Shown: positions 2,427-63,071, numbered from the stretch's first letter. The stretch is DNA of 64,000 nt from Pseudomonadota bacterium (GCA_043767805.1 JAYUGC010000058.1:9732-73731); one strand, 5' to 3'. Program-made: numbers and translations. The notes: generated from the sequence alone by a model not told the origin.

Positions 2427-2436
2427 GGTCGTCTCC

Positions 2437-4679: not shown

Positions 4680-4732
4680 GAAGCGGCGACTTGCGCATTG
4701 GGTTGGGGGAGGCCACGTGCTAGAAATACCCC

Positions 4733-46115: not shown

Positions 46116-47156
46116 ATGACTACCCTTTATCCGCTTTCCGAGCTACCCGCCGATCTCAAAGCGAAATGGGCCAAGCTCGCGCGCGCGAATCCCGGTTTGC
46201 CCGGGCCGTGCTTTCACCCGGACTTGTTTTGCGCCGTCGGCCGCGAGTTTAGGGACGCTTATGTCGCGGTACTGAGCCAAGGCGATAAGCTCGGCTTTCT
46301 GCCGTTCTACAAAGACGCTTCCTCGAAGCTCGCCGCTTCCATTCCGATGTGCGACTACCAGGCGGTTATCGGAGCGCCCGGCACGCGCTGGAATCTGGAC
46401 GAAGCTTTGCGCGACCTGGGTCTCGTGGCGTGGGACTTCGAGTATCTCGTGGGCCTATCGGACTTGGAATTTGGGAGCGCCTTTCTAAAAAATGGCGGCG
46501 CGCCCCGCATCGATCTCCGCCAAGGCACGGACGCTTACTTCAAGCAGATGCTTTCCCGTGACGTTTCTCTGAGAAACCTCATGCTCAAGCGCGATAAGCT
46601 ACAGAAGAAGCACGGCGAAATCCGCTTCGTGCAGGAAGAGGCCGGCTCCGCCCTCATCGATACCATCCTCGCCTGGAAGGCGAAGCGGTTTAACGACGGA
46701 AAACCCATCGACCCCAGAGTAAAGCGCGTGCTCGAGACTTTGAAAGTGGGCGATGAGGTGGCCGGGATTACGTCGGGGCTCTACGCGGGAGACGCGCTCG
46801 TCGCCGCGCATTTCGGCATTCGCTTGGACGGCATTCTCCATTACTGGTTTCCCGGCTTTAACCCCGAGTTCGGCCGCTTCACGCCCGGGCATCTGCTCGT
46901 CTATGAGCTCTTGATGAATCTCGAGGGCATGGGCTGTAAGATTCTCGACTTCGGTCCCGGCGGCGAAGCGTACAAACAATATTTCTGTAATGACTCGCTT
47001 CCGGTGACGAGCGGAGGCATCGAGCTTTTCTCCCGCTTCACGCTCGCGCGTAGGTGCCGCCGGAATCTGGAGAGCGCGGTGCGATCCACGGGCTGGCTCT
47101 ACAAGGGAGTGCAACCCATCGTCCGCAAGCTGCGCAACTTGAAAACGCGTCCTTGA
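46116..47156 (+). CDS. CelD/BcsL-like GNAT acyltransferase
   Basis: CDYQ, AAHFG, FTPGHLL, LDFGPGGEAYK. Confidence 0.8.
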   Translation: MTTLYPLSELPADLKAKWAKLARANPGLPGPCFHPDLFCAVGREFRDAYVAVLSQGDKLGFLPFYKDASSKLAASIPMCDYQAVIGAPGTRWNLDEALRDLGLVAWDFEYLVGLSDLEFGSAFLKNGGAPRIDLRQGTDAYFKQMLSRDVSLRNLMLKRDKLQKKHGEIRFVQEEAGSALIDTILAWKAKRFNDGKPIDPRVKRVLETLKVGDEVAGITSGLYAGDALVAAHFGIRLDGILHYWFPGFNPEFGRFTPGHLLVYELLMNLEGMGCKILDFGPGGEAYKQYFCNDSLPVTSGGIELFSRFTLARRCRRNLESAVRSTGWLYKGVQPIVRKLRNLKTRP

Positions 47157-47158
47157 AC

Positions 47159-48064
47159 ATGCTGGCTTGGCTTAAGAAAAAACTCCGCTTTCACCCGCGC
47201 GCTTTTCTCCATGCCTTTTTGACCTACCCTCGTTTCCTGGGCCGCATCAAGCCCGAGCTCATGACGGGCCGCGAGGAAGAGATCCGCGTCCGGCTCTTGT
47301 CACTCGGCTCGCGCTGGGAGCCGGCCAATTTGTCGGTTCCCGTCGGCCGTCGTTTGCTCGTGATAGCGCCTCATGCCGACGACGAGGCCATCGGCGTGGG
47401 CGGCCTGCTGCTCGCCCACCGCGGGCAGGCCGAAGTGCACATCGTCAACGTGTTCAACGGCGAGGGCGGAGGCCGACTTTCGGGGCGCGCGCGCGAAGAG
47501 ACGGACAGCTACAAAGGCGAGCTCGTCGAAGCGCGCAAAAAAGAGCTGGGACGGGTGGCGGCAAAGATCGGAGCGGCGTCGGTCACTCATCTCGGGCTTC
47601 GGGACGGCCAAGGGCTTCCCTCGGCGGAGGCGGTTCGCCGGTTGAAGGATATCATCGACAAAATTAAGCCCGACGTGGTGCTGCTACCGTGGTTCCTGGA
47701 CAATCAGCGGGACCATAAGGTGGCCAACCTTTTATACGCGTCGGCCTGCGCGGAGTATGATTGTCTGGTTTTGGGGTTCGAGATTTGGACACTGTGCCAT
47801 CCGAACGCACATTTCGATATTACTGATTGGCTGGATGAAAAAGTGAAACTGGTGAGCGAGTACCAAACGCAAACCGCCGACATCGATTACGCCGGCTACG
47901 CGCGCGGCCTCGGGGCGACTCGGGGCTTTCTCCAGAATGTCCGCAACGGGCGTGGCGCCGCCGAAGCTTTATTCGCGGTTCCGGGCCCCGACTATTGCGA
48001 GATCGTGCACTCCTTGTTCGGCACCCTCGCGAACTTGACTCCGACGGGGCGGGCCCTTTCTTGA
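47159..48064 (+). CDS. PIG-L/LmbE family deacetylase
   Basis: IAPHADDEAIGVGG, RKKE, RDH; start ATG 47159. Confidence 0.85.
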   Translation: MLAWLKKKLRFHPRAFLHAFLTYPRFLGRIKPELMTGREEEIRVRLLSLGSRWEPANLSVPVGRRLLVIAPHADDEAIGVGGLLLAHRGQAEVHIVNVFNGEGGGRLSGRAREETDSYKGELVEARKKELGRVAAKIGAASVTHLGLRDGQGLPSAEAVRRLKDIIDKIKPDVVLLPWFLDNQRDHKVANLLYASACAEYDCLVLGFEIWTLCHPNAHFDITDWLDEKVKLVSEYQTQTADIDYAGYARGLGATRGFLQNVRNGRGAAEALFAVPGPDYCEIVHSLFGTLANLTPTGRALS

Positions 48065-48663
48065 GCGACAGAAATGTCATCTACCGCGGGCTTCGGTTCT
48101 TCAGAAGCCGCTTTCGCAAAGCGATGAAGCTCAGAGCGGTGATTTTTTTCGAAAGCGCGCCGGCCGCCCACCGCCCGAAGTTCGAGGGTAAGTTCATCGA
48201 GGTCGATCACGAACAGTTCGATAAGTGGGTGTGGACTATCCACTATTTTCCCTGGCCCAACCCGAAAATTTCGCATCAGCGGTTAAACGAGAACACCAAG
48301 CTCTACGCGCTGATAGAAGGCGACATTCCCGTTTGTCTGGGCTGGGTAACCCGGTCGAGTACGTTTCCTCTGGGAGAGCTGGAGGGGAAGTGCGATTTCG
48401 ATCCGCCGACGGACATGATTTGGGATTGCGTGACGCTCGCCAACGAGCGCCGCAAGGGGCACTTCACCCGTTTCTTGACAGGGCTGCAGGCGCGTTTTCC
48501 GCAGACGACTTTCAGCATTTTTTGCCTGCCCGACAATCACGCCTCCGCGGGCTCGATCCGCAAGGCCGGCTTTCGCCCCTGGAGCTTCGTCCGCGTCTCG
48601 CGCTTCGGCACGAAGGTGAAGATGTTCTCGGCTAGCGGCGGCCGCATCTCGTTTCACTTTTGA
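48061..48663 (+). CDS. GNAT-family acetyltransferase-like protein
   Basis: WDCVTLANERRKG and NHASAGSIRKAGF; TTG start overlaps the upstream stop. Confidence 0.65.
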   Translation: MSDRNVIYRGLRFFRSRFRKAMKLRAVIFFESAPAAHRPKFEGKFIEVDHEQFDKWVWTIHYFPWPNPKISHQRLNENTKLYALIEGDIPVCLGWVTRSSTFPLGELEGKCDFDPPTDMIWDCVTLANERRKGHFTRFLTGLQARFPQTTFSIFCLPDNHASAGSIRKAGFRPWSFVRVSRFGTKVKMFSASGGRISFHF

Positions 48664-49733
48664 TTTAGCGAGTGGAGCGCGGCTTTCAACGGGCCTTCGA
48701 AGGCGCTCGTCGCGAATCGCTTTGCTTCGCGCGTTTGGGCTTGGGCGAGCGCTTCCCGCAACGGGATCTCGGTCAGAACGCGGTGGAGGGCGGCTGCCGC
48801 GGCAACCGGATCGCGGTTATCGATGAGTAATCCACCGTTGCCGAGAGTTTCCGGGACGGCCGCCGCGTTTAGGGCCACGATGGGCGTGCGCGCCTGCATG
48901 GCCTCCACCAAGGGGACGCAAAAGCCTTCATGCTCGGACAGAGAGAGGAGGGCGCCGGACGTGCGGTAATATTGAACGAGGGAGCTATCGGAAACCACGC
49001 CTTTGAGAACGACCGCGTTCTTTACCTCATTCTCGAGGATGGTGGCTTTCACGCTCTCCACGTACCTGTCATCGCCTCTCAAACTTCCCAAGACGGTGAG
49101 CGTCGCGCTCGGCATCGTCTTTCGAAGCTCGGCGAGAGTGAGCACGGCTTCGCGGATGCCTTTATGGGGAACGACCCGTCCCACTACTAAAAGAGTCGGT
49201 CCAGTCCTTACTCTTTCTCCGGGCGTAATGTCTCGGTGCCAGCTTAGGTAGGGAAGCCGGAGGACGTTTTTGGCGCCTAAAGCGCGCAGCTCGCGGCATG
49301 TGTACTCGGAGATCGAGACCTGGAGATCGGAGCCTTCGATGAGGCTCTTAAGTTGCTCTCGTCCCCAGTCCTGATCGCGTTTGGCCGAGCCGGATAGTCC
49401 CGGAAGGTCGGAGGGCGTAATGTTTTGGTAGAGGAGCACTTTGGTTTTGGCGGGCCAGGACAGAAAGCGATCGGCTACTACGGTGCCGATGGAGTGCTGA
49501 TACACGTTGACGTCGGGGGCGGGAGCGCCGGCCCACGGAGGTGTCGCGTTTTTAAGTCCTTTGCGCAAAGGGCCCGCGCGCCAAGGCCCGAAGTGAAAGC
49601 TCTGTTGGCGCTCGGTGAAGATTGCCGTCTCTTTTTCCCAACGCCTGAAGAGCGCCTCCATCGCCCAAGCCATGCGGCCCACGGCATCGTGCTGTCTGGC
49701 GTGTGGCACCATCTGGTAATAGCGTTCAGCCAA
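48654..49733 (-). CDS. GT4 glycosyltransferase
   Basis: YQNITP, VGRVVPHKG, SEHEGFCVPLVEAM. Confidence 0.88.
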   Translation of the reverse strand: MAERYYQMVPHARQHDAVGRMAWAMEALFRRWEKETAIFTERQQSFHFGPWRAGPLRKGLKNATPPWAGAPAPDVNVYQHSIGTVVADRFLSWPAKTKVLLYQNITPSDLPGLSGSAKRDQDWGREQLKSLIEGSDLQVSISEYTCRELRALGAKNVLRLPYLSWHRDITPGERVRTGPTLLVVGRVVPHKGIREAVLTLAELRKTMPSATLTVLGSLRGDDRYVESVKATILENEVKNAVVLKGVVSDSSLVQYYRTSGALLSLSEHEGFCVPLVEAMQARTPIVALNAAAVPETLGNGGLLIDNRDPVAAAAALHRVLTEIPLREALAQAQTREAKRFATSAFEGPLKAALHSLNQK

Positions 49734-50289
49734 GCCAGGGCTCCTCGTTGGAAAGTACCAAAGCGTTCAAGATAGAATCTCGCCAAGCGCCGTTAAGATA
49801 CAAATAGGAACGGGCGAAGCCTTCGCGCTCGAAGCCCAGTTTCTTCAGAAGCTTCTCGCTACGAATATTTTCCGGCATGTGATTGGCTTGAAGGCGGTGG
49901 AGGCGGAGCTCATGGCGCGAGTACGCAATGATCTCCCGCAAGGCTTCCGCCATGAGGCCTCGGCCCCAATGCTCGGCATCTAGAGAATAGCCGAGGTAGC
50001 AAGCTTGAAAATAGCGGCGAAAGATTTGCGAAAGGTTAACCATTCCCACGACGGTATCGTCGGGAAACTTCAAGACGAAGCGCATCGCCGTGAGGGGCTC
50101 GAGCTCTTTCAAGGCGCCCTTCGTGGCCTTTTCCCAATGCTCGACTGAGTAGTACTCGGATCCTTGAGTGGGCTCGGTGAAGGCAAAGGACTCGCGGTTA
50201 CGCGTGACATAGGCGGCAATCGATTTCGGCTCAACATTACTCAAATGCGAAATCCGGAGCCGCTCCGTATGCAGGGAAGGGACTTTCAA
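49726..50289 (-). CDS. RimJ-family N-acetyltransferase
   Basis: TTG 50289 overlaps the upstream stop; LHTERL, QACYLGY, GRGLMAEAL, LHRLQAN, GFEREG, WRD. Confidence 0.85.
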   Translation of the reverse strand: MKVPSLHTERLRISHLSNVEPKSIAAYVTRNRESFAFTEPTQGSEYYSVEHWEKATKGALKELEPLTAMRFVLKFPDDTVVGMVNLSQIFRRYFQACYLGYSLDAEHWGRGLMAEALREIIAYSRHELRLHRLQANHMPENIRSEKLLKKLGFEREGFARSYLYLNGAWRDSILNALVLSNEEPWLG

Positions 50290-50714
50290 GCGAGAACTGC
50301 TTTCTTGAAAGCGAGGGCGCGCGGAGCCCAGCCGTTCTTCTCGTAAAAGCGGATGCCTCGCTCGTTCGCGATCCCCGTGCAAAGGCGAAGTCCCGCGAGC
50401 CCGCGTGTGGCCGCTTCCGCTTCCGCCCACGCGAGGATCTCGGCGCCGAGTCCCGATGAGCGGTGGCTTTCCTCCACGACGAGATCGTCCAGATAGAGGT
50501 GCGAGCCGTGTACGAAATCCGTAATGACGCGAAATCCCAGAACGGCGACGCAAGTGTCTCCCTCGAACCAGCCTCTCAGCTCGTACGCGCTCTGGGCGCG
50601 GGCTAGCTCATACACGGCGAGGAAAGTTTTCCAATCGAGCTCGGTGCGGAGTTGCCGCAGGAGGGCAAAGGCGATTTCGAGATCAGCGGGAGAACTGAGG
50701 CTACGATTGAGCAT
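50286..50714 (-). CDS. GNAT acetyltransferase
   Basis: LYLDDLVV..HRSSGLG, FYEKNG. Confidence 0.88.
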   Translation of the reverse strand: MLNRSLSSPADLEIAFALLRQLRTELDWKTFLAVYELARAQSAYELRGWFEGDTCVAVLGFRVITDFVHGSHLYLDDLVVEESHRSSGLGAEILAWAEAEAATRGLAGLRLCTGIANERGIRFYEKNGWAPRALAFKKAVLA

Positions 50715-50751
50715 GTTTTAGGTTTACCGCCTTCGGCGGGGAGAGGCAAAC

Positions 50752-51465
50752 CTAGTGGGTACGGGCCAGCGCGCGATTAAGGAGATCGCACGGCTGCCAA
50801 GCGTGGGAGAGGCCTGACTTTTCGGCCGCTCTGTAAAAACCGGGCATGCTGCCTCTCGAAGGAAGAAAGGAGAGATCCACACCGGTACCCATAAAAACTT
50901 CCAGCACGGCGGAGGCGCAGTTGTAACTGTTCTCGTCGAAACTCTGGGATCGCATCGGGCTGAACTGATAGCGGGTGTGTCCCATCTGCAGCCGGCGCAT
51001 GTTATTTAGGAGAATTTCCAGCTGAGCGTCGGTGAGCTCGAGAGCAATGGAACGGGTCGGGAGAGAGGGGTGATTGATCCCATCCAAGGCCCACATTTCA
51101 TTATTCTGAAAAGCGCCCGGCAAAGTTTTCCACTTCTGAGCCGGAACGTCGTAGTTGGACATGTAGGCGAGTCGTTCGTCCGGCGTCATATTCGCGGCCG
51201 GCTCGTTAGAAGATAGCTCTCCTTCGAGTTGAGGTGTCCATCCGTACACCGTGGCGCCGAGACCAAATTTGTAGGGCGGAAGCCGAATGGCGACGTGACC
51301 AGCGGCGGCCAAAGGATCTTTTTTGAAGCTGGGAAGATCCGTGCTGTAGAGGACACTGCCGGGGACCGTGCTCAGGCTCTGACGATAGAGAATCTCGATA
51401 TGAGGCGCGAAGCTTTTCGGCGAAATCCAGAGAAGCGCCGAAATGAGCACTAGCCGAAAACCCAT
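50752..51465 (-). CDS. Secreted hypothetical protein, possible permuted papain-like thiol hydrolase
   Basis: GHVAI..YGW early and YQF..YNCAS late; signal-like N-terminus from ATG 51465 (track start 51513). Confidence 0.55.
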   Translation of the reverse strand: MGFRLVLISALLWISPKSFAPHIEILYRQSLSTVPGSVLYSTDLPSFKKDPLAAAGHVAIRLPPYKFGLGATVYGWTPQLEGELSSNEPAANMTPDERLAYMSNYDVPAQKWKTLPGAFQNNEMWALDGINHPSLPTRSIALELTDAQLEILLNNMRRLQMGHTRYQFSPMRSQSFDENSYNCASAVLEVFMGTGVDLSFLPSRGSMPGFYRAAEKSGLSHAWQPCDLLNRALARTH

Positions 51466-51526
51466 TAGGTTAAGGATAGCACCTAACGGGTGGGCTTCGA
51501 AGTAGGTCGTCACTAAGCGCTTGGAG

Positions 51527-52741
51527 TTACTGGGGCTTTAGCTCGGCGACTTCGCTCGCCAGCCCGCGGTTGGAGGCCGGCCTAATCCCCAATATCGACG
51601 TCATGAGAGCGTAGAGACTGACGTTGTGGATAGGTCCGACGTCGGTACCGGGCTCAAACGCCGGTCCGGAAGCGAAGAAGATCCCGTGCATATTGGGGAT
51701 GTCGGGCAGATAGCCGTGAGCGCCTTTGGTGGTCTCGCTCCCATGCTTGCCGCCGGGAGGGACGAGGTACCAGCCCTCGTCCGCGATGATGACCCGGTCG
51801 CCGATGCGCGGGCTCTTTTGATAGTGGAGCGAGGCGGGCAGGTCCTGCTTGCGAAAGACTCTCAAGCCGGGCTGGCGAAGTTTCTTTTCGACGGACGCCA
51901 GCTCTCTCTCTTTTCCGAAGAGATGGACGACCGCTCCGTAGCCCGAGATCTCTAATTTGGCTTTGCCGAGCGCGGGCTCGAGTTTCACGAAATGATCGGG
52001 GGCGACCGGCGTCATGCCGTGATCGGAAACGAAAAGGACGTTCAGCTGATTGTCCCAGCCGTGCGCTTTCAGCTCGGTTCTCAAAATGCCGATCGCGTCG
52101 TCGATTTGCAGGATGGCTTTGCCCACTTCCGGAGAATCGGGGCCAAAGCGGTGGCCCGCGCCGTCCACGTGCTCGAAATAGAGAGTCAGGAAGCGCGGGC
52201 GTTCCTTCGTGGGAAGCTCGAGCCAGCTGATGATTTGGCGGACGCGGGCTTCCGGCGAGACGGAGCCGTCGTACTCGCGGTAAAGGCTCGGGCGGCGGCC
52301 GCCGATGGCGGCGTTGGCGCCGACCCAAAAAACGGTGCCCGCGAGGACGCCTTGCTTTTCGGCCGTGCTCCAAATGGGCTCGCCTAGCCACCATTTGGGC
52401 TCGTCCGCGCTCTTCGGGTTTTTGTACTCGAAGCGTTTGCCGTCGGTGGGATCGAACATTTCGTTGCCGACGATGCCGTGATCCTCGGCGTAAAGCCCAG
52501 TCACGATGCTGTAGTGGTTAGGGAAGGTGGCCGTCGGGAAGACGGGGAGGAGCCTCTCGGCGCGTCGGCTGATTTTACGATAGGCCGCGAGGTTGGGACT
52601 CGGGTATTTCGTCCCATAATCCCAGCGATAGCCGTCTATGGAAATGAGCAGAACCGAGGGCGCTAGCCGGTCCGCCACTTTCGGGGGCAAGCTAGTGCAC
52701 GCCGTTAGAACGAGGGCCAACCAAATTGTGGGGTATTTCAC
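51527..52741 (-). CDS. Ectonucleotide pyrophosphatase/phosphodiesterase lipoprotein
   Basis: Lipobox LTA^C; ISIDG, PTATFPNHYSIVTG, D..GH..GP, SDHGM, GAHGY. Confidence 0.93.
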   Translation of the reverse strand: MKYPTIWLALVLTACTSLPPKVADRLAPSVLLISIDGYRWDYGTKYPSPNLAAYRKISRRAERLLPVFPTATFPNHYSIVTGLYAEDHGIVGNEMFDPTDGKRFEYKNPKSADEPKWWLGEPIWSTAEKQGVLAGTVFWVGANAAIGGRRPSLYREYDGSVSPEARVRQIISWLELPTKERPRFLTLYFEHVDGAGHRFGPDSPEVGKAILQIDDAIGILRTELKAHGWDNQLNVLFVSDHGMTPVAPDHFVKLEPALGKAKLEISGYGAVVHLFGKERELASVEKKLRQPGLRVFRKQDLPASLHYQKSPRIGDRVIIADEGWYLVPPGGKHGSETTKGAHGYLPDIPNMHGIFFASGPAFEPGTDVGPIHNVSLYALMTSILGIRPASNRGLASEVAELKPQ

Positions 52742-52808: not shown

Positions 52809-53016
52809 TCCCGCGCTCGGCGCGTTCGATCCGGGACGTCACGGGTTGCTGGATGCTGGTATGAGGTAGGTTATCTTGATCTTTTCCTGCCACACTCCTC
52901 GTTGTCGTAGCGCCCTCGTTAACGAGAAATCCGAGAGGGGGAGATCAAAATAGCCTACGTCGTACCAGCATCCAGCAACCCGTGACGTCCCGGATCGGAC
53001 GCGCGCCAGCGCGGGG
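52809..53016 (+). repeat. ~80-bp inverted repeat / long stem-loop (candidate ncRNA or partition site)
   Basis: Perfect 35-bp core at 52827-52861 / 52963-52997, extended on both sides mostly through T-G pairs; 47-nt loop. Confidence 0.9.
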
Positions 53017-53098
53017 GCCCTCGACTATTAAATTTCCTTAAAACAGCGCGGCGTGGGTTGCGCCGCCGCGGCCTTGTCCCTATTCTTGGCACGCCATC

Positions 53099-53938
53099 AT
53101 GACTGGAATCGTCGTACAAAATATCAAGGGTGGAGTCGGAAAAACCACGACCACGCTGCATCTCGCGGCCGATATCGTCCGGCGGCGGCCCAAAGCGAAG
53201 GTCCTCATCATCGACTGCGATCAGCAGGCCTCGATGCGGACTTATTTCCGCGATAAACTCGAGGACGCCCAAGGCGATCTCTTCGACTTTCTCATCGAAG
53301 GCAAAGATTTCCGGACTTGTCTCGGCCGCGTTTCGCTCCTTCCTGACGGCCAAGGCGTCGTCCATGTGATGCCGTCCTCTAAGCGCCTGGCCGATGTCGA
53401 AATCCGCCTCTCTACGCTCCCGCGCCGGGAGGAGACTCTTCGCCGGCGGCTCCGGGAAGACGGGGTGGGCCGTGAGTACGATTACTTGATTTTCGATTGC
53501 CCGCCGACGTTGAATCTCCTGACTTATAACGTCGCGGTGGTCTGCAGCTATCAGATCATCCCCTGCAATATGGATTATCTGTCTCTGGTGGGCGTACAAT
53601 CGATTCTGGAAAACCTCGCCATGGTGGAAAAATATTTCGGCCGTAAACCCCATGTCCTCGGCATCCTGCCGACCTTTTTCGACGGGCGCTCGACCGTGGC
53701 GAAAGCCGTTCGTCAGAGCCTCGAAGAGACGTTTCAAAAGATTCACCCCATTTTGGAGCCCATTCGCCTGGACTCTGGGCTGAAGAAAGCCCAAATCCGC
53801 AAAGAGACGCTCTATCAATTCGATCCCAGCTCCCGGGCCGTAGAAGATTACAGTCGGCTGGGCGAAGCGGTCCTCGACGCCATCGATGGACACCGCAGCT
53901 CGTACGAGACCCGAGTCGCCGAGGAAGTCAGATTATGA
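53099..53938 (+). CDS. parA: ParA/Soj-family ATPase (orphan)
   Basis: KGGVGKTTT deviant Walker A; IDCDQQ; FDCPP; PTFFD.R. Confidence 0.9.
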   Translation: MTGIVVQNIKGGVGKTTTTLHLAADIVRRRPKAKVLIIDCDQQASMRTYFRDKLEDAQGDLFDFLIEGKDFRTCLGRVSLLPDGQGVVHVMPSSKRLADVEIRLSTLPRREETLRRRLREDGVGREYDYLIFDCPPTLNLLTYNVAVVCSYQIIPCNMDYLSLVGVQSILENLAMVEKYFGRKPHVLGILPTFFDGRSTVAKAVRQSLEETFQKIHPILEPIRLDSGLKKAQIRKETLYQFDPSSRAVEDYSRLGEAVLDAIDGHRSSYETRVAEEVRL

Positions 53939-54279
53939 CGACGACGACGAAAAAGAAGAAGTCTTCCCGCAAGGCCACGAAAAAGCGGGAGGCCGATCAA
54001 CTGACCGCATTCTTAAACGAAGCCGCGGTCGCCGCTCCCACGCCCGAAGTGCTCGTTCCCGGAAAAGATCAGGATTGGGTCGGCGAAAAGGTCGAACAGC
54101 TTCGCTCGCTCGCCGCGCTCCCCAAGAAGGAGCTCATCGGGCGCGCGGAAAAAGCCGTCGTGCAGCAAGCCCGCAAGTTTCTCAAGGCCAACGCGGAGTG
54201 CGGTATCTCCGTCTCGGGCCTAGTCCGGACCAGCGCTCTCTTCTTGCTCTCGTTTCCCTTGAAACGTCACGAGCGCTGA
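53935..54279 (+). CDS. Small ParA-associated protein with basic N-tail and possible RHH-like C-terminal helix
   Basis: ATGA overlap with parA; KKKKSSRKATKKR; GISVSGLVR. Confidence 0.6.
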   Translation: MTTTTKKKKSSRKATKKREADQLTAFLNEAAVAAPTPEVLVPGKDQDWVGEKVEQLRSLAALPKKELIGRAEKAVVQQARKFLKANAECGISVSGLVRTSALFLLSFPLKRHER

Positions 54280-55280
54280 AGCGCGGGGGCGTAGTCCGAC
54301 GTTTTTTGGCGCGCTTCGGAAAAGGAAATCATCCGGTCGCGCTCTTTGTCCCACAATTTCAGGCGCAGGCAGCGGTACATGTCCGATGGCCAGAGAGACG
54401 TGCGCGCGGGAGTTTGAAGCTCCGGGATGGCCGCCATGGCTTCCGGCAAACGGTAGAACGGAATGCGCGAGTTCAAGTGATGCACGTGGTGGTAACCGAT
54501 GTTGCCCGTAAACCAATGCATGATGGGCGAGCCTTCCATGAAGCTCGACGAGCGCACGGCCGCGAACACGAAATCCCAGTCCGCGCGAGGCTTGAGCTTA
54601 ACTTCAGGAAAGTTGTGCTGAGCGTAGAAGAGATAGCCACCCACCGAGCAAGCAATGAAGAGCGGAACGAGATAAGAGAGCACGGCGATGGCCGGGTTCC
54701 ACATCCAAAGCCCGGCAAGCAAGACGCCGTGAGCGATGAGCGCGATGAGCGAATCGAAATGGCGCTTCGGATCGGTAAAAAAGGAAACTAGGCACATGCC
54801 GAAGAGGAAGATGGGCAGGTAGCCAAAAGCGATGGTGATGGGATGGCGGGCGATGCGGTACTCGATCCGCTTATACCAGGGGGCCGCGAAGTACTCAGTC
54901 GTCGTCATGACCGGGAACGAGCCGATGCTAGCCGTCGCGATTTGCGCGTTCTTGCTGTGATGGTAGTTATGCGAGCGGTTCCACACGCGCGGCGGATTCA
55001 AAATGAACACGCCAAAGACCGAAAAGAAAGCGGTCGCCACAGGCGAGTTTTGGAAAATCGCGCCGTGCTGGTAGTCGTGATAGAGGATGAAAATCCTTAC
55101 GTAAGTGAGGCCTTCCAAAACGGACGCTAGGATCCGGAGGGGCAGGGCCACCTCGGAAGCGGCCACTACGGCCAAGCCAACGGCCACCGCGATCGTCGAT
55201 AACAAATGCCACCAGCTCAAGGCGCGGTTTTCCACGGCGTAGGGTTTGGTTGCTTTTAAAAGCTCGGTAAGTTCTCTCAT
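54267..55280 (-). CDS. Membrane fatty acid desaturase
   Basis: Three His boxes HDYQH, HNYHH and HHVHH; TM helices; ATGA overlap with the ligase stop. Confidence 0.92.
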   Translation of the reverse strand: MRELTELLKATKPYAVENRALSWWHLLSTIAVAVGLAVVAASEVALPLRILASVLEGLTYVRIFILYHDYQHGAIFQNSPVATAFFSVFGVFILNPPRVWNRSHNYHHSKNAQIATASIGSFPVMTTTEYFAAPWYKRIEYRIARHPITIAFGYLPIFLFGMCLVSFFTDPKRHFDSLIALIAHGVLLAGLWMWNPAIAVLSYLVPLFIACSVGGYLFYAQHNFPEVKLKPRADWDFVFAAVRSSSFMEGSPIMHWFTGNIGYHHVHHLNSRIPFYRLPEAMAAIPELQTPARTSLWPSDMYRCLRLKLWDKERDRMISFSEARQKTSDYAPALQRS

Positions 55281-57052
55281 GTGGCTTCTGAAACTTGAGT
55301 AAAGCGCCGAATCTCTTCCAGAGCGCCCCCTAAAAAGAGCTGCCGAGAAAGCTGACGCTGAATCTTGCCGCTGCTAGTGAGCGGGATGCTATTGGCCTTA
55401 ATCAGACTGATGGCGTAGGCATTCACGCCGTGGTTCTCGAAGACATCGCGCCGGATAGCGTCGAGAACTTCGTCCATGTTGACATCACGGGCGCTCCGGC
55501 TCAACTCCTGAATGATGACTAGGCGTTCCTCGCCGGACTCATCCACGGAGACCACCGCGCAGGCGCCGAGATTCAAAGCAGGGTGAGATTGGCCCACGGT
55601 CTGCTCGATATCGTGCGGGTAATAATTGCGCCCGCGCAAAATGACCAGGTCCTTAATGCGGCCGGTCACGAAGACTTCGCCTTCCCACTTAAAGCCCAAA
55701 TCGCCGGTGCGAAGAAAGGTATCGGCGGAATCATCTCCGGCGATGGTAGCCTTGAAAGTCGTTTCGGTTTCCACGGGCTTTTTCCAATAGCCGACCGCGA
55801 CGCTCGGCCCCGCGACCCAAATCTCGCCCACTTTGCCGTCTTCGCAAGGGATGCGATTCGAAGGATCGACGATCTCGACGCGATTGCCTTCGGTCGCATA
55901 CCCGCAACCGACGATGGTGCGACTGCCGCGCGTGCCGGCTTCCGCCGTTTCCACGGTGGCTTTAATCTCAAGCTTTTCCGAGTTCAAAGTGAGGGTCGGC
56001 GCTCCGGTTCCCCGTTTTACGCCGGTAACCATGAGAGTCGCTTCGGCCAGGCCGTAGCACGGATAAAAAGCTTCTCTTTTGAAACCGCAGGGCTCGAACT
56101 TGCGCGCGAACGCTTCGAGCGTTTCATGGCGCACGGGCTCCGCGCCGCAAAAGGCGAGCTCCCAGCTCGAAAGATCGAGATCGGCCAGGGCTTTGTCGGG
56201 AATCCGCTTCACGCAGAGATCGAAAGCGAAGTTGGGACCGCCACTGAAGACGGCTTTGTACTTGCTGATGGCTTGCAGCCAGCGCGCGGGGCGCATCAAG
56301 AAAGAGTAGGGCGACATCAATACGCCGGTGAGCCCCGCATAGAGCGGCTCCAAGATTCCGCCGATGAGACCCATGTCGTGGTACGGGGGCAACCAGGAAA
56401 CGCTGTGGGTGCCCGCGACCGTATCGAAAGAGCGTTGAATGCCCGCGAGATTATGCAGAAGACTGCCGTGCGTCAGCATCACGCCCTTGGGGCTCGAGGT
56501 CGAGCCCGAGGTGTACTGCAGAAAAGCCAAAGTATCCGGATTTATCGACGAGACCGGGTCGATCTCGGTGCCGGCGGGAAGTTGGTCGGTCTCAATCCAG
56601 GTGAGCTTGTGAAGGTCGGCGTGCGACTGAATCGCGGGCCCAAGCGCTTCGCGGATGGATTTGGAAGTGAGCGCGATTTTAGGCTCCACGTCCGCGACGA
56701 TGCTGTCCAGGCGATCCATCTTCGTGTTGAAGCGGGGCGGATAAACGGGCACCGCCACCACGCCCGCGAAAAGGCAGCCGAAAAAGCTGATGATGTAATC
56801 GAGGCCGGGCTGGTGATTGATGAGCGCCCGATCGCCCGGGCGGGCGTGTTGGCTAATCACGCCAGCCAAACGGCGGGCCTGATGTTCCAGCTCGGAATAG
56901 GTCAGGGTGATGCCGTCATGGGCCCCATCTTTTAGGTAAATCCATGCAAAGGCATCCGGCGTGACTCTCGCTCGGAACCGAACCAGCTCCACCAAGCTGG
57001 GCAAATCTCCTGGCGCCCTTAAGGATTTGGGCGCGGGGTCAGGCATTTCCAA
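55277..57052 (-). CDS. Fatty acyl-AMP ligase (FAAL)
   Basis: AFLQYTSGSTSSPKGV, SWLPPYHDMGLIGG, PCYGLAEATL followed by a FAAL-type insertion, LRTGDLG, TSSGKIQR. Confidence 0.92.
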   Translation of the reverse strand: MEMPDPAPKSLRAPGDLPSLVELVRFRARVTPDAFAWIYLKDGAHDGITLTYSELEHQARRLAGVISQHARPGDRALINHQPGLDYIISFFGCLFAGVVAVPVYPPRFNTKMDRLDSIVADVEPKIALTSKSIREALGPAIQSHADLHKLTWIETDQLPAGTEIDPVSSINPDTLAFLQYTSGSTSSPKGVMLTHGSLLHNLAGIQRSFDTVAGTHSVSWLPPYHDMGLIGGILEPLYAGLTGVLMSPYSFLMRPARWLQAISKYKAVFSGGPNFAFDLCVKRIPDKALADLDLSSWELAFCGAEPVRHETLEAFARKFEPCGFKREAFYPCYGLAEATLMVTGVKRGTGAPTLTLNSEKLEIKATVETAEAGTRGSRTIVGCGYATEGNRVEIVDPSNRIPCEDGKVGEIWVAGPSVAVGYWKKPVETETTFKATIAGDDSADTFLRTGDLGFKWEGEVFVTGRIKDLVILRGRNYYPHDIEQTVGQSHPALNLGACAVVSVDESGEERLVIIQELSRSARDVNMDEVLDAIRRDVFENHGVNAYAISLIKANSIPLTSSGKIQRQLSRQLFLGGALEEIRRFTQVSEAT

Positions 57053-57287
57053 CTTGTTCTTTCACGACGCGCTCGATGTCTCCCACGCTTTGGAGCTGGG
57101 CGAGTTTTTCGTCAGGGATCACAATGTCGAGCTCATCTTCGATGCAGCCCACGATTTCCATCATGGCCACCGAGTCGATGCCGAGAGAGGCAATCTTGGT
57201 GTCCGTGGTGATCACGGGAAAGGTTTTATGGGACTCGACCTTCTTGGCGATATCCGTGAACATTTGCAGAACGTTGACGTCGGTCAT
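57039..57287 (-). CDS. Acyl carrier protein
   Basis: 82 aa, acidic, LGIDSVAMMEI phosphopantetheine site; GGAGGAG RBS. Confidence 0.9.
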   Translation of the reverse strand: MTDVNVLQMFTDIAKKVESHKTFPVITTDTKIASLGIDSVAMMEIVGCIEDELDIVIPDEKLAQLQSVGDIERVVKEQVGNA

Positions 57288-57302
57288 CGGGTCTCCTCCG
57301 CT

Positions 57303-58169
57303 TTAAGCGTCAAGCCGCTTCAAGGAAAATTGGTGTAAGGACTGCCAGTTGTTATCGAAAGCCTTGATACAACAAGACAGGTAACGATCGTAATCGTCGT
57401 AGAGCTTCTGGCCCCACTTTTCGACGATGAAATCTTTATGGGCTTCCATGCGGTTCAGCCACTCCGTGCAGGTCTGCTGATAGTGGCCGCGCATGGAGCG
57501 CATTTCCATCACTTCGTAATAAGGAATGCTCGCCACCACGAGATCTTCCACGCGAGGGGTCACCGCGCCGGGGAAAATCGTGTACGTGGAGTGCCGCAAG
57601 TTATCCAAGTCTTCCTTCTTGCGCGGAACCTGGCAGCGGGTAATGGCCTGGAGGCCGAAGTACGTGCCGGGCTTGCTCCACGAGTGAGCGCGCTTGAAGT
57701 AGTCGCGATAGAGATCGACGGCCTTGCCGGCGCGCGCCTGCTCGGGCGTGACCACGTGCTCGACCATGCAAATCGACATGATGGCGTCGAACTTAAAAGG
57801 CGGACTGTAATGAAGGTAGTTTTCGCAAGTGACCGTGGTGTTCGGCAAATCGCGATCGACGCAGTTCTTGTACTGCTCTTCACTCAAAGTGAAGCCGTGA
57901 ACGCGGGGCGCCTTATTGACGGTGGCTTGGTACTCGAGGTTCGCTCCCCAGCCGCAACCGATATCCAAAACGCTTTCCGTGTGGTGATCGATATTGGCGA
58001 ATTTGCTGAGCCGCGCCAGTTTGTTGTCCTGGGCCTTCTCGAAATCGTCCGAGTAGTTCACCGTGTCGGTGTACAGTGCGCAGGTATAGTTCATGCGCTT
58101 GTCTAGCCACAGTCTGAAGAAGTCATTGCTGACTCCATACGAGACTTCGACTTCGGATTGCGTGGACAT
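57303..58169 (-). CDS. Cyclopropane-fatty-acyl/mycolic-acid-type SAM methyltransferase
   Basis: YGVSNDFFRLWLD..MNYTCA, AQDNKL, LDIGCGWG, TLSEEQ, IFPG, HY..T...W; GGGGAG RBS before ATG 58169. Confidence 0.9.
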   Translation of the reverse strand: MSTQSEVEVSYGVSNDFFRLWLDKRMNYTCALYTDTVNYSDDFEKAQDNKLARLSKFANIDHHTESVLDIGCGWGANLEYQATVNKAPRVHGFTLSEEQYKNCVDRDLPNTTVTCENYLHYSPPFKFDAIMSICMVEHVVTPEQARAGKAVDLYRDYFKRAHSWSKPGTYFGLQAITRCQVPRKKEDLDNLRHSTYTIFPGAVTPRVEDLVVASIPYYEVMEMRSMRGHYQQTCTEWLNRMEAHKDFIVEKWGQKLYDDYDRYLSCCIKAFDNNWQSLHQFSLKRLDA

Positions 58170-58296
58170 CTCTCCCCCAATAATCGGAAAAACTAATGAA
58201 TTTGGCAGAGGGCAATATGCAGAAAAACTTAAGGGTTGGCAAGACGGTAAGCTTTGATTATTTCTGCAGGGTATCACTTCCCAAAGCTGGAGAATC

Positions 58297-59610
58297 ATGG
58301 AGAACCTGGACACTCAGACCCTAGACGGGCTATGCGCCCGCGCCGTTCGCATCTCGGACCGGGAAACGCTCAATCAGTTCTGTATCGAGCAGAACTACGA
58401 CCCCACCGACCTGTTCTCCAAAGCACGCATCTACGCCAAGGAAATCCATGACCTAAAGCGTTTTGGCGTCCTTCAATATGGGGTGCCCATCGAGTCCAAA
58501 CCGGGCCCGACCGTGAAGATGGAGTTCTTCGGCGAAAAGCGCGAAATGATCATGTTCGCGAGTAACGACTACCTCAATCTCTCCACCGACCCCCGCGTGC
58601 ACGAGAGCATCATCGATGCCCTAAAAAACTACGGCGTCGGAGCGGGAAGTTCCCGGGTCGGTACGGGATACTCCTATCTTCATAGAGAGTTAGAGGAACA
58701 ATTGGCCGCGAGCTTCGGCAAAGAAGCCGCCATTTTGTTCCCTACGGGCTACGACGCCATTGCCGCGCCCGCGATCAGCCTTTTAGGACCGAAAGACCGG
58801 GTTTTCATCGACGGATCGTCTCACGCCTGCATTTTGGACGGCGCTTACACGAGTGGAGCGACGGTTCGAGTTTTTGCCCACAACCAGCCTGATCGGTTGG
58901 AGGACGCCCTTCGCCGGGCTAAGGAAAAAGTCACGGACGGCGGATTTCTCGTCATGGTCGAAGGGGCTTACAGCATGGACGGCGACATCGCCGACCTGCC
59001 GAACCTGGTCGCAGTGTGCCGTAAGTACGGCGCGAAGCTCATGGTCGATGAAGCGCACTCCATCGGCGTGCATGGATCCAAAGGGCACGGGGCTTGTGAG
59101 CACCACGGCGTGCAGAAGCAGGTCGATTTCATCGGCGGCACGTTCTCCAAGTCGCTCGGCGCGACGGGCGGATTCGTCGCGGCGGACAAAGACGTCATCA
59201 CCTATTTGAATTACATGTCCCGCAAGATCATCTTCAGCGCGGCTCTGCCTCCCATTTTGGTGGCGGGAGTCAAAAAGGCGCTCGAAATCATGGAGACCGA
59301 TCACGGCTTGCGCGAGCAGCTCTGGGCCAACGTGCATTATCTCGCGGCCGGCATGAAGCAAATCGGCGCGAAAGTGCTCGGCACGGGAACGGCTTCGGTG
59401 CCGGTGCTCATCGGTAACGACGGCATCATGTTCCGGTTCACGCGGGAATTAATTCAGAACGGGATTTTTACTTTCCCGGCGGTCTACCCGACGGTGCCTC
59501 GCAATCGCTCGCTCTTCCGGCTGGCGTTGCAGACGAAACATTCGAAGGCGGATCTCGATAAAACCATCGACGTCTTCTCGAAGCTCCTCAAGAAGTACAA
59601 CGTCACCTGA
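58297..59610 (+). CDS. Alpha-oxoamine synthase family enzyme, serine palmitoyltransferase-like
   Basis: FASNDYLNL, GSSR, SHACI, SMDGD, VDEAH, GTFSKSLG (PLP Lys), IFSA; N-terminal extension. Confidence 0.85.
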   Translation: MENLDTQTLDGLCARAVRISDRETLNQFCIEQNYDPTDLFSKARIYAKEIHDLKRFGVLQYGVPIESKPGPTVKMEFFGEKREMIMFASNDYLNLSTDPRVHESIIDALKNYGVGAGSSRVGTGYSYLHRELEEQLAASFGKEAAILFPTGYDAIAAPAISLLGPKDRVFIDGSSHACILDGAYTSGATVRVFAHNQPDRLEDALRRAKEKVTDGGFLVMVEGAYSMDGDIADLPNLVAVCRKYGAKLMVDEAHSIGVHGSKGHGACEHHGVQKQVDFIGGTFSKSLGATGGFVAADKDVITYLNYMSRKIIFSAALPPILVAGVKKALEIMETDHGLREQLWANVHYLAAGMKQIGAKVLGTGTASVPVLIGNDGIMFRFTRELIQNGIFTFPAVYPTVPRNRSLFRLALQTKHSKADLDKTIDVFSKLLKKYNVT

Positions 59611-59653
59611 GGTTCCGTAGGCCCAAAGGAATCGTGCTAAGATAAGCCGATTC

Positions 59654-60892
59654 ATGCCGGTTATCTTCGACATCTCCACGCTGGGATACGGCGCACTCGG
59701 GCCGGCCTTTCGTACGGGTGTTTTTCGCAGCGTCGAGAACCTTTTGCATTCCCTCGATCGCTTTCACCCGGGCCTGGTTCGCCTTTGCGCACTGGATTCG
59801 CCTCAAGCCTGGGCGCTGTCGCGCCGGTATTGGAAGCGAAGTGCTGTCGCCGGCGCCGAGTTCCTGCCCGCGGAAGGGGGCAGGCTATTTTCCCTGATGG
59901 AAGGCGCACTCGTTCGGTGGAATCAAGTGAGTGACGCGGGCTTTCTCCGGCGCTTGAGCAGACGGGCGTTACGGGAAAGCTCTTCTCGCCTCGGCAAACG
60001 CGTGCCCCGTTTGAGTGCCTCGGACTTCGCGGGCTCCGTTTACCACTCTCCTTTTTATGCGTTTCCGCCCGAGACGAAAGGGCTCGCCCGAGTCTTGACT
60101 CTCCACGATCTCATTAATCTCCGTTCCCCCGAGCTTCCCCGGGGATCGGGCGAGTACTTGAGAGTTATCGTCAAGGGGATTGGCCCCGAGGATCGCGTGG
60201 CCTGCTGTTCGGAGTGGACGCGCCAAGAGCTTCTCGAGCAATGCCCCAGGCTTTCGCCCGAGCGGGTGTCAGTCATCGGCTGGGGCGTCGGAGACAACTT
60301 CGCGCCGCCCCCGCCGGACTTGAAAGCGAGTACGCTCAGATCCTTCGGCTTGGACCAAGTTCCCTATTTCATCTCGGTCGCCACCTTGGAGAAGCGGAAG
60401 AACGTGCCGCTTCTGATCGGGGCGTTTCAAGACTTGCGCGCGAGGAGACCCGACTGTGAGGCGCGCTTGGTGCTCGTCGGCGCGGATGGGTCGGACACCG
60501 CCGCCGTCACCGCGATGATCCAGGGCAAGAGCGACATCCTTCGCTTGGGCTTTGTTCCCGACGCGAGTCTTGCCGCGCTTTATGCCGGCTCTTCGGGCTT
60601 TGCGTTACCGTCCCTTTACGAAGGGTTCGGTTTGCCGGCCCTGGAGGCAATGCGCGCGGGCGCTCCGGTCTTGGCGAGCGAATCGAGCGCGCTGGGCGCG
60701 GTGGTGGGAGAAGGGGGCTGGCGGCTCGACCCCCGAGACCGCGAAGCGTGGAGTCATGCCCTCGAACTCCTGTACGATTCCTCTACCGAGCGAGACAAAT
60801 GGCGGGCTCGAGGCGCGGCTTGGGCCTCGCGCTTTTCCTGGAAGAGCACGGCCGCCGGATACGCCGGCGTCTACGAAAAGTTTCTTAAGTGA
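59654..60892 (+). CDS. GT4 glycosyltransferase
   Basis: TLHDL, TLEKRKN, PSLYEGFGLPALEAM, FSW. Confidence 0.9.
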   Translation: MPVIFDISTLGYGALGPAFRTGVFRSVENLLHSLDRFHPGLVRLCALDSPQAWALSRRYWKRSAVAGAEFLPAEGGRLFSLMEGALVRWNQVSDAGFLRRLSRRALRESSSRLGKRVPRLSASDFAGSVYHSPFYAFPPETKGLARVLTLHDLINLRSPELPRGSGEYLRVIVKGIGPEDRVACCSEWTRQELLEQCPRLSPERVSVIGWGVGDNFAPPPPDLKASTLRSFGLDQVPYFISVATLEKRKNVPLLIGAFQDLRARRPDCEARLVLVGADGSDTAAVTAMIQGKSDILRLGFVPDASLAALYAGSSGFALPSLYEGFGLPALEAMRAGAPVLASESSALGAVVGEGGWRLDPRDREAWSHALELLYDSSTERDKWRARGAAWASRFSWKSTAAGYAGVYEKFLK

Positions 60893-60943
60893 GATTTGAG
60901 TTTAACCAGAGTGCGCGCGGGAAAGACGACGTATAATTGGCTC

Positions 60944-61825
60944 ATGACGCAACTTAGGAACGCGCTTTTCTCCTTGATAAAGAAATTTTTTCGGCTGCTT
61001 CCCGGCGCGGATACCTTGCGAGCTTTTCCCCTTTTTAAGCAGTGGCACTCCGCGCTGAACTTTCATTTGAAGCAGGAGAGCGTCCTGGTCGAGGGGCTAT
61101 CGCTCTTCGTTAACCGGGAAGATCGAATGATTTCTCAGATGCTGATGCGCGAAAAAGTCTACGAGCCGGTGGAAACGGTTTTTTTTCGCTCGAATGTCCG
61201 TGAGGGGGACGTCTTTCTCGATATCGGGGCCAACATCGGTTATTTTACCCTGCTCGCCGCCGCCCGAGTCGGAGCAAAAGGAAAGGTATTCTCCTTCGAG
61301 CCGGACCCCACCAACTTTGCCTTTTTAGAGAAAAGCGTCCGCATGAACCATCTGTCTCAGGTGACGGCCCTGAAAGCGGCGGTCACCGACAAGACCGGGA
61401 AGTTGAAGCTATTTCGGAACGAGGACAACCTGGGCGATCACCGGATTTATGCTACCGATTCGTCCGCCCAGAGCATCGATATCGATAGCGTTTGTCTCGA
61501 CGACTATCTTCCACCGCTCGAAGGGGCCCGCATCGTCGTTAAAATCGACATTCAGGGAGCGGAGGTCTCCGCCATTAGAGGGCTCTCCCGCTTCTTTTCC
61601 GGCCACTCTGACGTCACTCTGCTCACGGAGTTCTGGCCCGAGGGACTTCGCAGGTTTGGCTCGAGCAGCGCCGAGTATGCTTCTCTTCTCGTGGAAAATC
61701 GTTTCAAGCTGTTTCTTATCGAGAGCTCCGGCGCTTTGAAGCCCGTGACTCGGGAAGAGCTTCTCGCTTCTTTCCCGCAAGGGGACCCCGACGCGTACAA
61801 AAATGTCGTCTGCAAAAAGGGCTAA
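60944..61825 (+). CDS. FkbM-family methyltransferase
   Basis: YEP, LDIGANIGYFT, FEPDP.N, KIDIQGAE. Confidence 0.9.
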   Translation: MTQLRNALFSLIKKFFRLLPGADTLRAFPLFKQWHSALNFHLKQESVLVEGLSLFVNREDRMISQMLMREKVYEPVETVFFRSNVREGDVFLDIGANIGYFTLLAAARVGAKGKVFSFEPDPTNFAFLEKSVRMNHLSQVTALKAAVTDKTGKLKLFRNEDNLGDHRIYATDSSAQSIDIDSVCLDDYLPPLEGARIVVKIDIQGAEVSAIRGLSRFFSGHSDVTLLTEFWPEGLRRFGSSSAEYASLLVENRFKLFLIESSGALKPVTREELLASFPQGDPDAYKNVVCKKG

Positions 61826-61832
61826 TACCCGC

Positions 61833-63071
61833 CTACCAGAGCTTTTCCAGGTAATAGACCCGGCTCTGGTTGATGGAAAGTAAGGCTTCGATGGGATCGG
61901 GCTTGTTCGCCTCGAGCGTCACCGGCGGCTGGATGGAGATGGTGCGGACTTCGCTGAAAATCTTAGGCGGCAGTGTCTCGTCGGCCACCGCGGGCGTTGC
62001 GGCGACAAACCAGCGGTAGTTGCCGGAGGTGGTGAACTTCAGATTGAAGCTCATGTCCGACGTGTCCCGGCGGTAGAGCTCTTTGCCGGCCGCGTCCGAG
62101 AGCACGAAAGTATAGATCTGATGGCCGACAGCGGCGTTGGGCCGCTCCCATTCGAACGCCACCGACACCGGCATCTCCTGGCTGTAGAACGCGAAGTTTC
62201 TCGGCGGCAGGAGCAAAGGCAGCGGCAAGTTCACGTGCGTGAGGGAAGGCGGCTCGCCTCGGCCACTCATGGGCAACACCATGCTGAACTGGCGTACTTC
62301 GGATTGCCACCGGCCGTCCTCGCTCACAATTTGGGCGAGATACTTGCCTTCGCGCTCGATCTTTACCGAGTAGAAGTCTTGCGTGGTGTAGGCCATCGGC
62401 TCGGGGCGAGGCTTTTCCGGCTGCCAGATGCGCACGCCGTAGTTCAAGTTCTTTTCGGCGACGGCTTTCCAGGTAATGCGCATGTCCTGGGGAAGGCTCG
62501 GCACGATGGACAGGGCGTTCGCGGCCGGAGTGTAGATGCGGATCTTTTTCGATCGCATGGAAACGGTAGCGTCTTGGTTGTCTTTATCTTCATCCCTGAG
62601 TGCGTTCAGGAAATCTTTTTTGATGTCTTCTTTGAGCAGGTTCGCGGCGAAACGTTCCCAAGCCTCTCCGAATGACTCATACATGAGCTCCATCATGTCT
62701 TTCGACGGCTTGGGCGCCGGAAGCTTCGGGATGAAATAGTCGTTTAACGTGAGGCGACGCGGGATGTTCTCTCTGAGACGCATCAGAATGGGGCTATTCA
62801 AAGTGATGATCATCGACTCGGCTTGGATGCCGGTGAAGCCGGCCGTCATGGAAAGCTCGAAGGTGATCGAAGCGTCCTTAGAGACCTGAATGAGAGTGCT
62901 CTCCCAGATCGAGTCTCCGCTCTTCAGCTCCGTCCAGGCGGGGGAGAGTGGCGGCCAGGCGAGGACCAGGCCCTTTACCTCTTTGACGAGGTAGCGCTTA
63001 CGGATTTCGGGTAAACGGCCCGCATAGGCGCTTAAAGAGAAGAAAGCCAGCATGAGAAACAGGCGTTTCAT
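61833..63071 (-). CDS. Secreted hypothetical protein (FecR-like N-terminus and Fn3/Ig-like repeats, tentative)
   Basis: Signal peptide; WTELKSGD; two beta-sandwich-like segments; ATGA coupling to the PP2C gene. Confidence 0.6.
   Translation of the reverse strand: MKRLFLMLAFFSLSAYAGRLPEIRKRYLVKEVKGLVLAWPPLSPAWTELKSGDSIWESTLIQVSKDASITFELSMTAGFTGIQAESMIITLNSPILMRLRENIPRRLTLNDYFIPKLPAPKPSKDMMELMYESFGEAWERFAANLLKEDIKKDFLNALRDEDKDNQDATVSMRSKKIRIYTPAANALSIVPSLPQDMRITWKAVAEKNLNYGVRIWQPEKPRPEPMAYTTQDFYSVKIEREGKYLAQIVSEDGRWQSEVRQFSMVLPMSGRGEPPSLTHVNLPLPLLLPPRNFAFYSQEMPVSVAFEWERPNAAVGHQIYTFVLSDAAGKELYRRDTSDMSFNLKFTTSGNYRWFVAATPAVADETLPPKIFSEVRTISIQPPVTLEANKPDPIEALLSINQSRVYYLEKLW

Follow-up and report, generated by a model that had tools for sequence, protein, structure and literature searches.

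In Rhodobacteria, the genes for serine palmitoyltransferase (SPT) are accompanied by those for a dedicated acyl carrier protein (ACP), AcpR, and for a ligase, AasR. According to PMC9386255, AasR acylates AcpR, and acyl-AcpR is the preferred substrate of SPT. In JamABC-type systems, a desaturase acts on the ACP-bound chain, as stated in the abstract of bioRxiv 10.1101/291195. Modified long-chain bases have also been described in natural sources, namely a 13,14-cyclopropane base in Sphingomonas and 9-methyl-4,8-diene bases in fungi (PMC2444003). The present analysis concerns a 64,000-nucleotide stretch of DNA, hereafter the window, from a Pseudomonadota bacterium (GCA_043767805.1, JAYUGC010000058.1:9732-73731). 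Within it, five core genes encode an alpha-oxoamine synthase (AOS), a CMAS/CFA-synthase-type methyltransferase, an ACP, a fatty acyl-AMP ligase (FAAL) and a membrane desaturase. Judged from the sequences, these genes probably form an alternative module that synthesises long-chain bases in an ACP-dependent manner, includes its own steps of desaturation and of methyl or cyclopropane tailoring, and would feed the bacterial ceramide pathway. We hold this reading with moderate confidence.

The arrangement in Escherichia coli BL21(DE3) (NC_012971.2, 2990834-2994885) is the most useful reference. There, five genes adjoin one another: yghO, a separate gene for AasR (named 'fatty acyl-AMP ligase' by PGAP), an epimerase-family gene (CerR), an ACP gene and spt. 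This AasR shares 35% identity with the window FAAL (E 2e-92), and no other protein of the source genome matches it better. An insertion of about 25 residues after YGLAE, which we take to be the place of the FAAL-specific insertion, occurs in the window FAAL, in E. coli AasR and in three FAALs from related clusters, and is absent from two E. coli FadD-type paralogues. On two FAAL subfamily models, the window protein scores below the cut-off (461 versus 775, and 418 versus 600). The window ACP carries its serine in a GIDS motif. Owing to the AasR-AcpR-Spt precedent, the identity to AasR and the common insertion, the combination of FAAL, ACP and SPT-like AOS can be regarded as a known kind of system. 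The original prediction, made from the window alone, did not recognise the combination as characterised; its core of FAAL, ACP and SPT corresponds to the AasR/AcpR/Spt system, as outlined in PMC9386255 and as found at the E. coli BL21 locus. Literature searches returned no paper that combines an oxoamine synthase with a fatty acyl-AMP ligase and an acyl carrier protein, or serine palmitoyltransferase with a fatty acyl-AMP ligase.

The conserved five-gene core

Conservation was assessed in 401 genomes of the phylum, comprising 400 sampled genomes and the source genome, which is of a predatory-bacterium type. About 10 kb on each side of the AOS gene was fetched and searched with the window proteins. 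AOS orthologues with 69-88% identity are present in 14 of the 401 genomes, the source genome included, and all others reach about 42% at best. In all ten loci with enough DNA, the AOS gene adjoins the genes for ACP, FAAL and desaturase, and in eight of these the methyltransferase gene lies between AOS and ACP. All five core genes share one strand in G084, and the short or broken contigs of G171, G199 and G373 fit the core pattern. In G171, which belongs to the same genus as the source genome, the AOS gene stands at the end of one contig, and another contig opens with methyltransferase, ACP, FAAL and desaturase. After the desaturase gene come, as in the window, the small open reading frame (ORF), the ParA-like gene and the gene of the phosphodiesterase family. 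A metagenome contig (L072) carries all five core genes as well.

In the cluster loci, identity to the window protein amounts to 69-72% for AOS, 69-76% for the methyltransferase (nine loci), 58-70% for ACP, 51-56% for FAAL and 55-60% for the desaturase (10 of 10 loci). The methyltransferase and the desaturase are also restricted in their distribution. At E<=1e-40, the methyltransferase is found in 16 of the 401 genomes, namely the 14 AOS-bearing genomes and two relatives of G135 that retain a cluster remnant. Desaturase orthologues with at least 55% identity occur in cluster-bearing genomes only; stand-alone homologues with 42-46% identity exist in another family of the phylum, in surroundings devoid of the cluster genes. 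The joint recurrence of the five core genes across other genomes shows that their arrangement goes beyond chance. The search for conserved synteny suggested by the original prediction thus had a positive outcome: AOS, CMAS-type methyltransferase, ACP, FAAL and membrane desaturase constitute a conserved unit.

Further searches gave a small number of additional relatives. The scan of genome contigs yielded one relative only, and a metagenome scan, which used very general patterns, kept 80 loci, three of which hold members of the AOS clade. On a short metagenome contig (L074), a deep member of the clade with 54% identity is encoded at 1664-3229 (+). Its gene follows that of a 47%-identical ACP on the same strand, at a distance of 4 nt, and an OmpA-like gene comes before both. 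In G163 (L070, G163:C3:133000-150000), the module has decayed, with AOS, methyltransferase and desaturase each spread over several frames, ACP and FAAL intact, and a CerR-like gene beside the AOS remnant. Two-frame matches, indicating a frameshift or an assembly error, were obtained for the AOS of G373 (L045) and for the FAAL of G139 (L069). No AOS orthologue was found in G139, where the contig opens with methyltransferase, ACP, FAAL and desaturase. In G084 (L039), a ferredoxin-reductase-type FAD/NAD-binding oxidoreductase gene at 4219-4998 (+) adjoins the cluster desaturase, and its product is a possible electron donor.

Proposed function and competing explanations

In the proposed pathway, the FAAL would activate a free fatty acid and load it onto the dedicated ACP, as homology to AasR suggests. 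The acyl-ACP would next enter a condensation, catalysed by the SPT-like AOS, with an amino acid that is most likely L-serine. The product would be a 3-keto long-chain base, and the unlinked bCerS and CerR of the source genome, judging from their co-occurrence with the module, may turn it into ceramide. If the desaturase forms a double bond, at which the CMAS-type methyltransferase places a carbon (methyl, methylene or cyclopropane), a modified long-chain base would result. Either the acyl-ACP or the completed base or ceramide could be the substrate of this tailoring. The pathway drawn by the original prediction holds in its central part, in that synteny, the likeness to AasR and the complementary occurrence of canonical spt favour a FAAL-loaded dedicated ACP and release by an SPT-like AOS as a sphingoid-type aminoketone. 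The glycosyltransferase GT4 and the FkbM-family methyltransferase, which it had included, do not belong to it (see below).

Among solved structures, SPT of Sphingobacterium multivorum is clearly the best match of the AOS with 281.9 bits, followed by cysteate acyltransferase (226 bits), annotated Kbl-type chains (214-219 bits), E. coli BioF (184 bits) and CqsA (121 bits). The residues named in the S. multivorum SPT structure paper are kept (N52, S81, H138, S185, D210, A212, H213, T241, S243, K244 and F272), and with this set of active-site residues the enzyme looks active. About 80 database proteins are at least 53% identical to the AOS, and the next ones drop to 46% and below. The AOS clade occupies 18 rows of a 61-row tree with an SH-aLRT support of 100 and a stem of 0.72. 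The group that contains it excludes E. coli Kbl and BioF. As references, this tree contains E. coli BL21 Spt, Kbl and BioF as well as further proteins named by their best NCBIfam label; of 41 outgroup proteins scanned with NCBIfam, none exceeded a curated cut-off. When the AOS clade was constrained to join the SPT group, a group that was named after the tree had been seen, the log-likelihood differed by 1.01 (p-AU 0.457). On its placement, the AOS is assigned to a distinct SPT-like family, neither BioF nor Kbl, and a sister position to SPT is compatible with the tree test. The phylogeny called for by the original prediction accordingly groups the enzyme with neither of these two.

The connection to ceramide comes from genes elsewhere in the genome and in the family. 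The source genome contains three AOS paralogues, one of which is bioF-like and lies beside bioA. A canonical spt at the end of contig C22 (C22:16067-17257, +) reaches 495 bits on the CFB-type SPT model, compared with 335 for the window AOS. Two further genes lie at the end of contig C193 (43645-45776, -): one codes for a homologue of YghO/bCerS (31% identical to E. coli YghO, E 4e-60), and the other is CerR-like. Since spt, bcerS and cerR are contiguous in three relatives, these genes are very probably split by a contig break in the source genome. The canonical spt has no adjacent ACP or FAAL gene in the loci examined. All three genes, recovered by paralogue and YghO searches, had been overlooked in the original prediction; the search for ceramide genes that it proposed does return the bCerS homologue and the CerR-like gene.

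All 34 genomes of the window's family possess bCerS, and in 21 of them canonical spt lies directly upstream of it, as judged by coordinates. Canonical spt occurs alone in 24 genomes, both types occur in two (those of the source genus), and the window-type AOS occurs alone in eight, which are seven genomes of genus g7 and one 73%-complete genome. The seven g7 genomes keep bCerS-CerR, with no spt upstream in four g7 loci. A canonical spt query found none in the five g7 genomes tested (5/5), the best match being the window-type AOS with 39-41% identity. As no canonical spt was found and bCerS-CerR is kept, the module is the only candidate source of long-chain bases in g7. This suggests that it replaced canonical spt in this genus. 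In other lineages, a CerR-like reductase gene is located downstream of AOS (G135 and G163), and an FA_hydroxylase gene (PF04116) follows the desaturase gene (G057).

Several observations weigh against a role in ceramide formation with tailoring by the core enzymes. In the source genome, the module lies apart from bCerS and CerR, and because canonical spt is present, the module is not needed there for ceramide. It is also dispensable, given its broken and decayed state in G163 and the frame breaks in G373 and G139. The AOS stays below the cut-offs of all SPT models, with 334.9 versus 640 on NF047600, 330.7 versus 500 on NF047599 and 239.1 versus 670 on NF047603; its scores on the SPT, BioF and Kbl models are about equal and pass no cut-off. 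In the quick tree, its clade is placed outside the group of canonical SPTs (support 94). Compared with S. multivorum SPT, the substrate loop is changed at five positions (G80 to S, F83 to V, L84 to G, N85 to T and M271 to I), and serine is therefore not assured as the substrate. The remaining points concern the tailoring enzymes. The NCBIfam family nearest to the desaturase is DesA, an acyl-lipid Delta5 desaturase, on whose model it scores 189.6 bits (cut-off 500). Two clusters, in G179 and G057, lack the methyltransferase, a 49%-identical homologue being present elsewhere in each genome. The source genome also encodes a stand-alone, 77%-identical methyltransferase paralogue (C184:16195-17055, -), which is surrounded by unrelated genes such as those for an EamA transporter and a DUF2071 protein. 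Together, the likeness to DesA, the stand-alone paralogue and the clusters without methyltransferase would fit tailoring away from the carrier protein.

The position outside canonical SPT and the unlike substrate loop could be explained if the module made a non-sphingolipid aminoketone or amino-alcohol lipid, a metabolite or signal in the manner of CqsA/LqsA or JamABC, that does not feed bCerS and CerR. Two further points agree with such a product: the trio of FAAL, ACP and membrane desaturase follows the JamABC pattern, and in four genomes (G000, G171, G084 and G057) this AOS is accompanied by a further match of SPT type. We nevertheless regard this explanation as rather unlikely. The CqsA/LqsA model (NF005526) gives the lowest score of all, 213.2 against a cut-off of 428, in line with the structural comparison, and family scans of the neighbouring ORFs revealed no sensor kinase, polyketide synthase (PKS), nonribosomal peptide synthetase (NRPS) or thioesterase near the module. 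Furthermore, g7 keeps bCerS-CerR with this AOS as its sole SPT-like enzyme, and the CerR-like and FA_hydroxylase genes mentioned above adjoin the module in other lineages.

The tailoring enzymes bear on a second explanation, according to which FAAL, ACP and AOS form an ordinary AasR/AcpR/Spt-type system, with the desaturase and the methyltransferase sharing the operon merely by location and modifying bulk phospholipids. The desaturase has three His boxes (HDYQH, HNYHH and HHVHH) and four hydrophobic segments. The methyltransferase matches PF02353 with 169.5 bits (cut-off 27) and remains below the NCBIfam equivalog cut-offs, e.g., 122.5 versus 400. It is of the short soluble type, with a length like that of mycobacterial CMAS, and its best solved match is a CFA synthase. 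Its Cys, Glu and Tyr align with positions that, together with a His, are presumably the bicarbonate ligands in CFAS/CMAS; in 12 of 12 clade members, Gln stands in place of the His. Second copies of the methyltransferase are found in G171 and G091 as well. Phospholipids are the substrates of the DesA family, to which the desaturase comes closest among curated families, and of the CMAS/CFA-synthase relatives of the methyltransferase, and both the stand-alone paralogue and the two clusters without methyltransferase agree with tailoring of bulk lipid. This explanation is nonetheless improbable in our view. The methyltransferase is limited to AOS-bearing genomes and two close relatives with remnants, the desaturase orthologues occur in cluster genomes only, the genes overlap or show translational coupling, and the methyltransferase is as conserved as the AOS.

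It is scarcely credible that the AOS is a BioF or Kbl isozyme with unrelated neighbours: the 332.9 bits on BioF model TIGR00858 about equal the SPT scores and clade members bear the name '8-amino-7-oxononanoate synthase' in their source annotations, but this score and that on Kbl model NF005394 (312.7) fall short of the cut-offs (426.45 and 460), E. coli BioF and Kbl branch elsewhere, the synteny with ACP and FAAL is conserved, and a separate bioF beside bioA, for which the original prediction had proposed to look, means that the AOS is not the biotin enzyme. The annotated name is probably wrong for the clade.

Within the favoured reading, that of a long-chain-base synthase module, a more specific version may be put forward tentatively. 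The desaturase and the His-to-Gln methyltransferase could act on the ACP-bound chain before condensation and thereby constitute a carrier-templated line for cyclopropane or mid-chain methyl-branched sphingoid bases, which would have displaced canonical SPT in one genus. We regard this version as less likely than not.

Layout and surroundings of the locus

Gene families were assigned from the ORF list together with Pfam and NCBIfam scans (Table 1).

Table 1. Features of the locus, with positions counted along the window.
Feature	Position	Strand	Description
Desaturase	54267-55280	-	337 aa; Pfam FA_desaturase PF00487 3.6e-25; last gene of the - strand operon
FAAL	55277-57052	-	591 aa, TTG start; AMP-binding PF00501 1.4e-69 and AMP-dom_DIP2-like PF23024 2.5e-10
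ACP	57039-57287	-	82 aa; PP-binding PF00550 4.1e-10
CMAS/CFA-synthase-type S-adenosylmethionine-dependent methyltransferase	57303-58169	-	288 aa; PF02353 1.2e-49; first gene of the operon
Divergent intergenic region	58170-58296	.	127 bp
AOS	58297-59610	+	437 aa; Aminotran_1_2 6.3e-54; GTFSKS, pyridoxal phosphate lysine K285
GT4 glycosyltransferase	59654-60892	+	412 aa; PF00534 8.5e-24
FkbM-family methyltransferase	60896-61825	+	309 aa; TIGR01444 7.4e-29

The operon is tightly packed. FAAL and desaturase genes overlap by 4 nt, ACP and FAAL genes by 14 nt if the TTG start of the FAAL is accepted, and 15 nt separate the methyltransferase gene from that of the ACP. In the ORF list, the methyltransferase frame is extended as far as a GTG at 58313. 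Its likely start is the ATG at 58169, which follows a GGGGGAGAG ribosome-binding site and gives a 288-aa protein that covers PF02353 end to end. With this start, the divergent gap is exactly 127 bp. The gene positions, this gap and the overlapping ACP, FAAL and desaturase genes had all been given correctly in the original prediction, which had also described a cluster devoid of ketosynthase, thioesterase and bio genes; none was found among the ORFs scanned from 47 to 64 kb. The two sigma-70-like matches in 53800-62000 both lie in 58170-58296 on the - strand, with a mean of 2.1 in shuffled sequences, and the counts of promoter-like and terminator-like matches are no higher than in shuffles. No Rfam family matched in 53000-63000, the divergent gap included.

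Downstream, the desaturase gene marks the end of the - strand operon, since two reading frames of the other strand converge on it: a ParA-like gene for a ParA/MinD-type ATPase at 53099-53938 (+) and a small, 114-aa lysine-rich ORF at 53935-54279 (+). The pair is kept in G171. A 312-aa ORF at 52955-53893 (-) was considered as a sixth gene and rejected, as it is the antisense of the ParA-like gene. Farther out, the block at 47054-52741 comprises genes for a PIG-L deacetylase, a second GT4, a RimJ-like GNAT and a protein of the type I phosphodiesterase/nucleotide pyrophosphatase family, together with a 253-aa ORF that matches no family; possibly, it serves a glycolipid or envelope pathway. Of these genes, only that of the phosphodiesterase family was met again, beside the ParA-like gene in G171.

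On the other side, the original prediction had extended the pathway to GT4 and FkbM, with possible glycosylation and O-methylation of the product. Neither gene gave a tblastn match in the 11 other genome loci (0/11) or in the one full metagenome locus (0/1). In G171, both are absent between AOS and the 412-aa gene that follows in the window, and AOS lies 532 bp from that gene, compared with 2223 bp here. GT4 and FkbM are thus lineage-specific neighbours outside the module, by insertion here or by deletion in G171. The 412-aa ORF itself (61833-63071, -) begins in the manner of a signal peptide and matches nothing in Pfam or NCBIfam. Its counterpart in a same-genus genome is 72% identical and adjoins a SpoIIE-type phosphatase gene.

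Significance and comparison with known systems

To our knowledge, bacterial sphingolipid synthesis is currently described with one type of SPT per lineage. The module suggests a second, separately evolved SPT-like clade, which would have a dedicated ACP and ligase and its own chain-tailoring enzymes and would be able to replace the canonical enzyme. It offers a five-gene set for testing the origin of unsaturated, methyl-branched or cyclopropane long-chain bases, and for testing whether, beyond the chemistry of mycolic acids and polyketides, carrier-bound chains can serve as substrates of membrane desaturases and CMAS-type enzymes. Should the tailoring take place on the ACP, this would be the first genetically defined bacterial route to cyclopropane or mid-chain methyl-branched sphingoid bases. 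Literature searches found no paper that joins a bacterial sphingolipid long-chain base with a cyclopropane fatty acid synthase and a desaturase, and none on a sphingolipid desaturase of Bacteriovorax.

The canonical spt-bcerS-cerR operon, of the type described in PMC11087976, resides in the same genome and would supply the steps downstream of the module. The AasR-AcpR-Spt system, known from Caulobacter crescentus and E. coli BL21(DE3), resembles the locus in its FAAL-type acyl-ACP synthetase, dedicated 82-aa ACP and adjacent SPT-family AOS. In contrast, the window AOS belongs to a separate clade and is 35% identical to E. coli Spt, the window ACP matches AcpR weakly and locally (27 aa), and the gene order is unlike, with neither CerR nor bCerS at the window locus. 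A desaturase and a CMAS-type methyltransferase are moreover built into the window operon.

The JamABC and TtuABC trios likewise encode a FAAL, a dedicated ACP and a membrane desaturase together, and the correspondence is limited to this gene trio. In the present case, no PKS or NRPS gene lies downstream, and release would be carried out by the AOS. The fungal sphingolipid C9-methyltransferase belongs to the CFA-synthase family and acts on ceramide. The window enzyme differs from it in being short, soluble and mycobacterial-CMAS-like. The likeness to the fungal pair of Delta8-desaturase and C9-methyltransferase lies in the combination, since here, too, a desaturase and a CFA-synthase-family methyltransferase would jointly modify a sphingoid chain.

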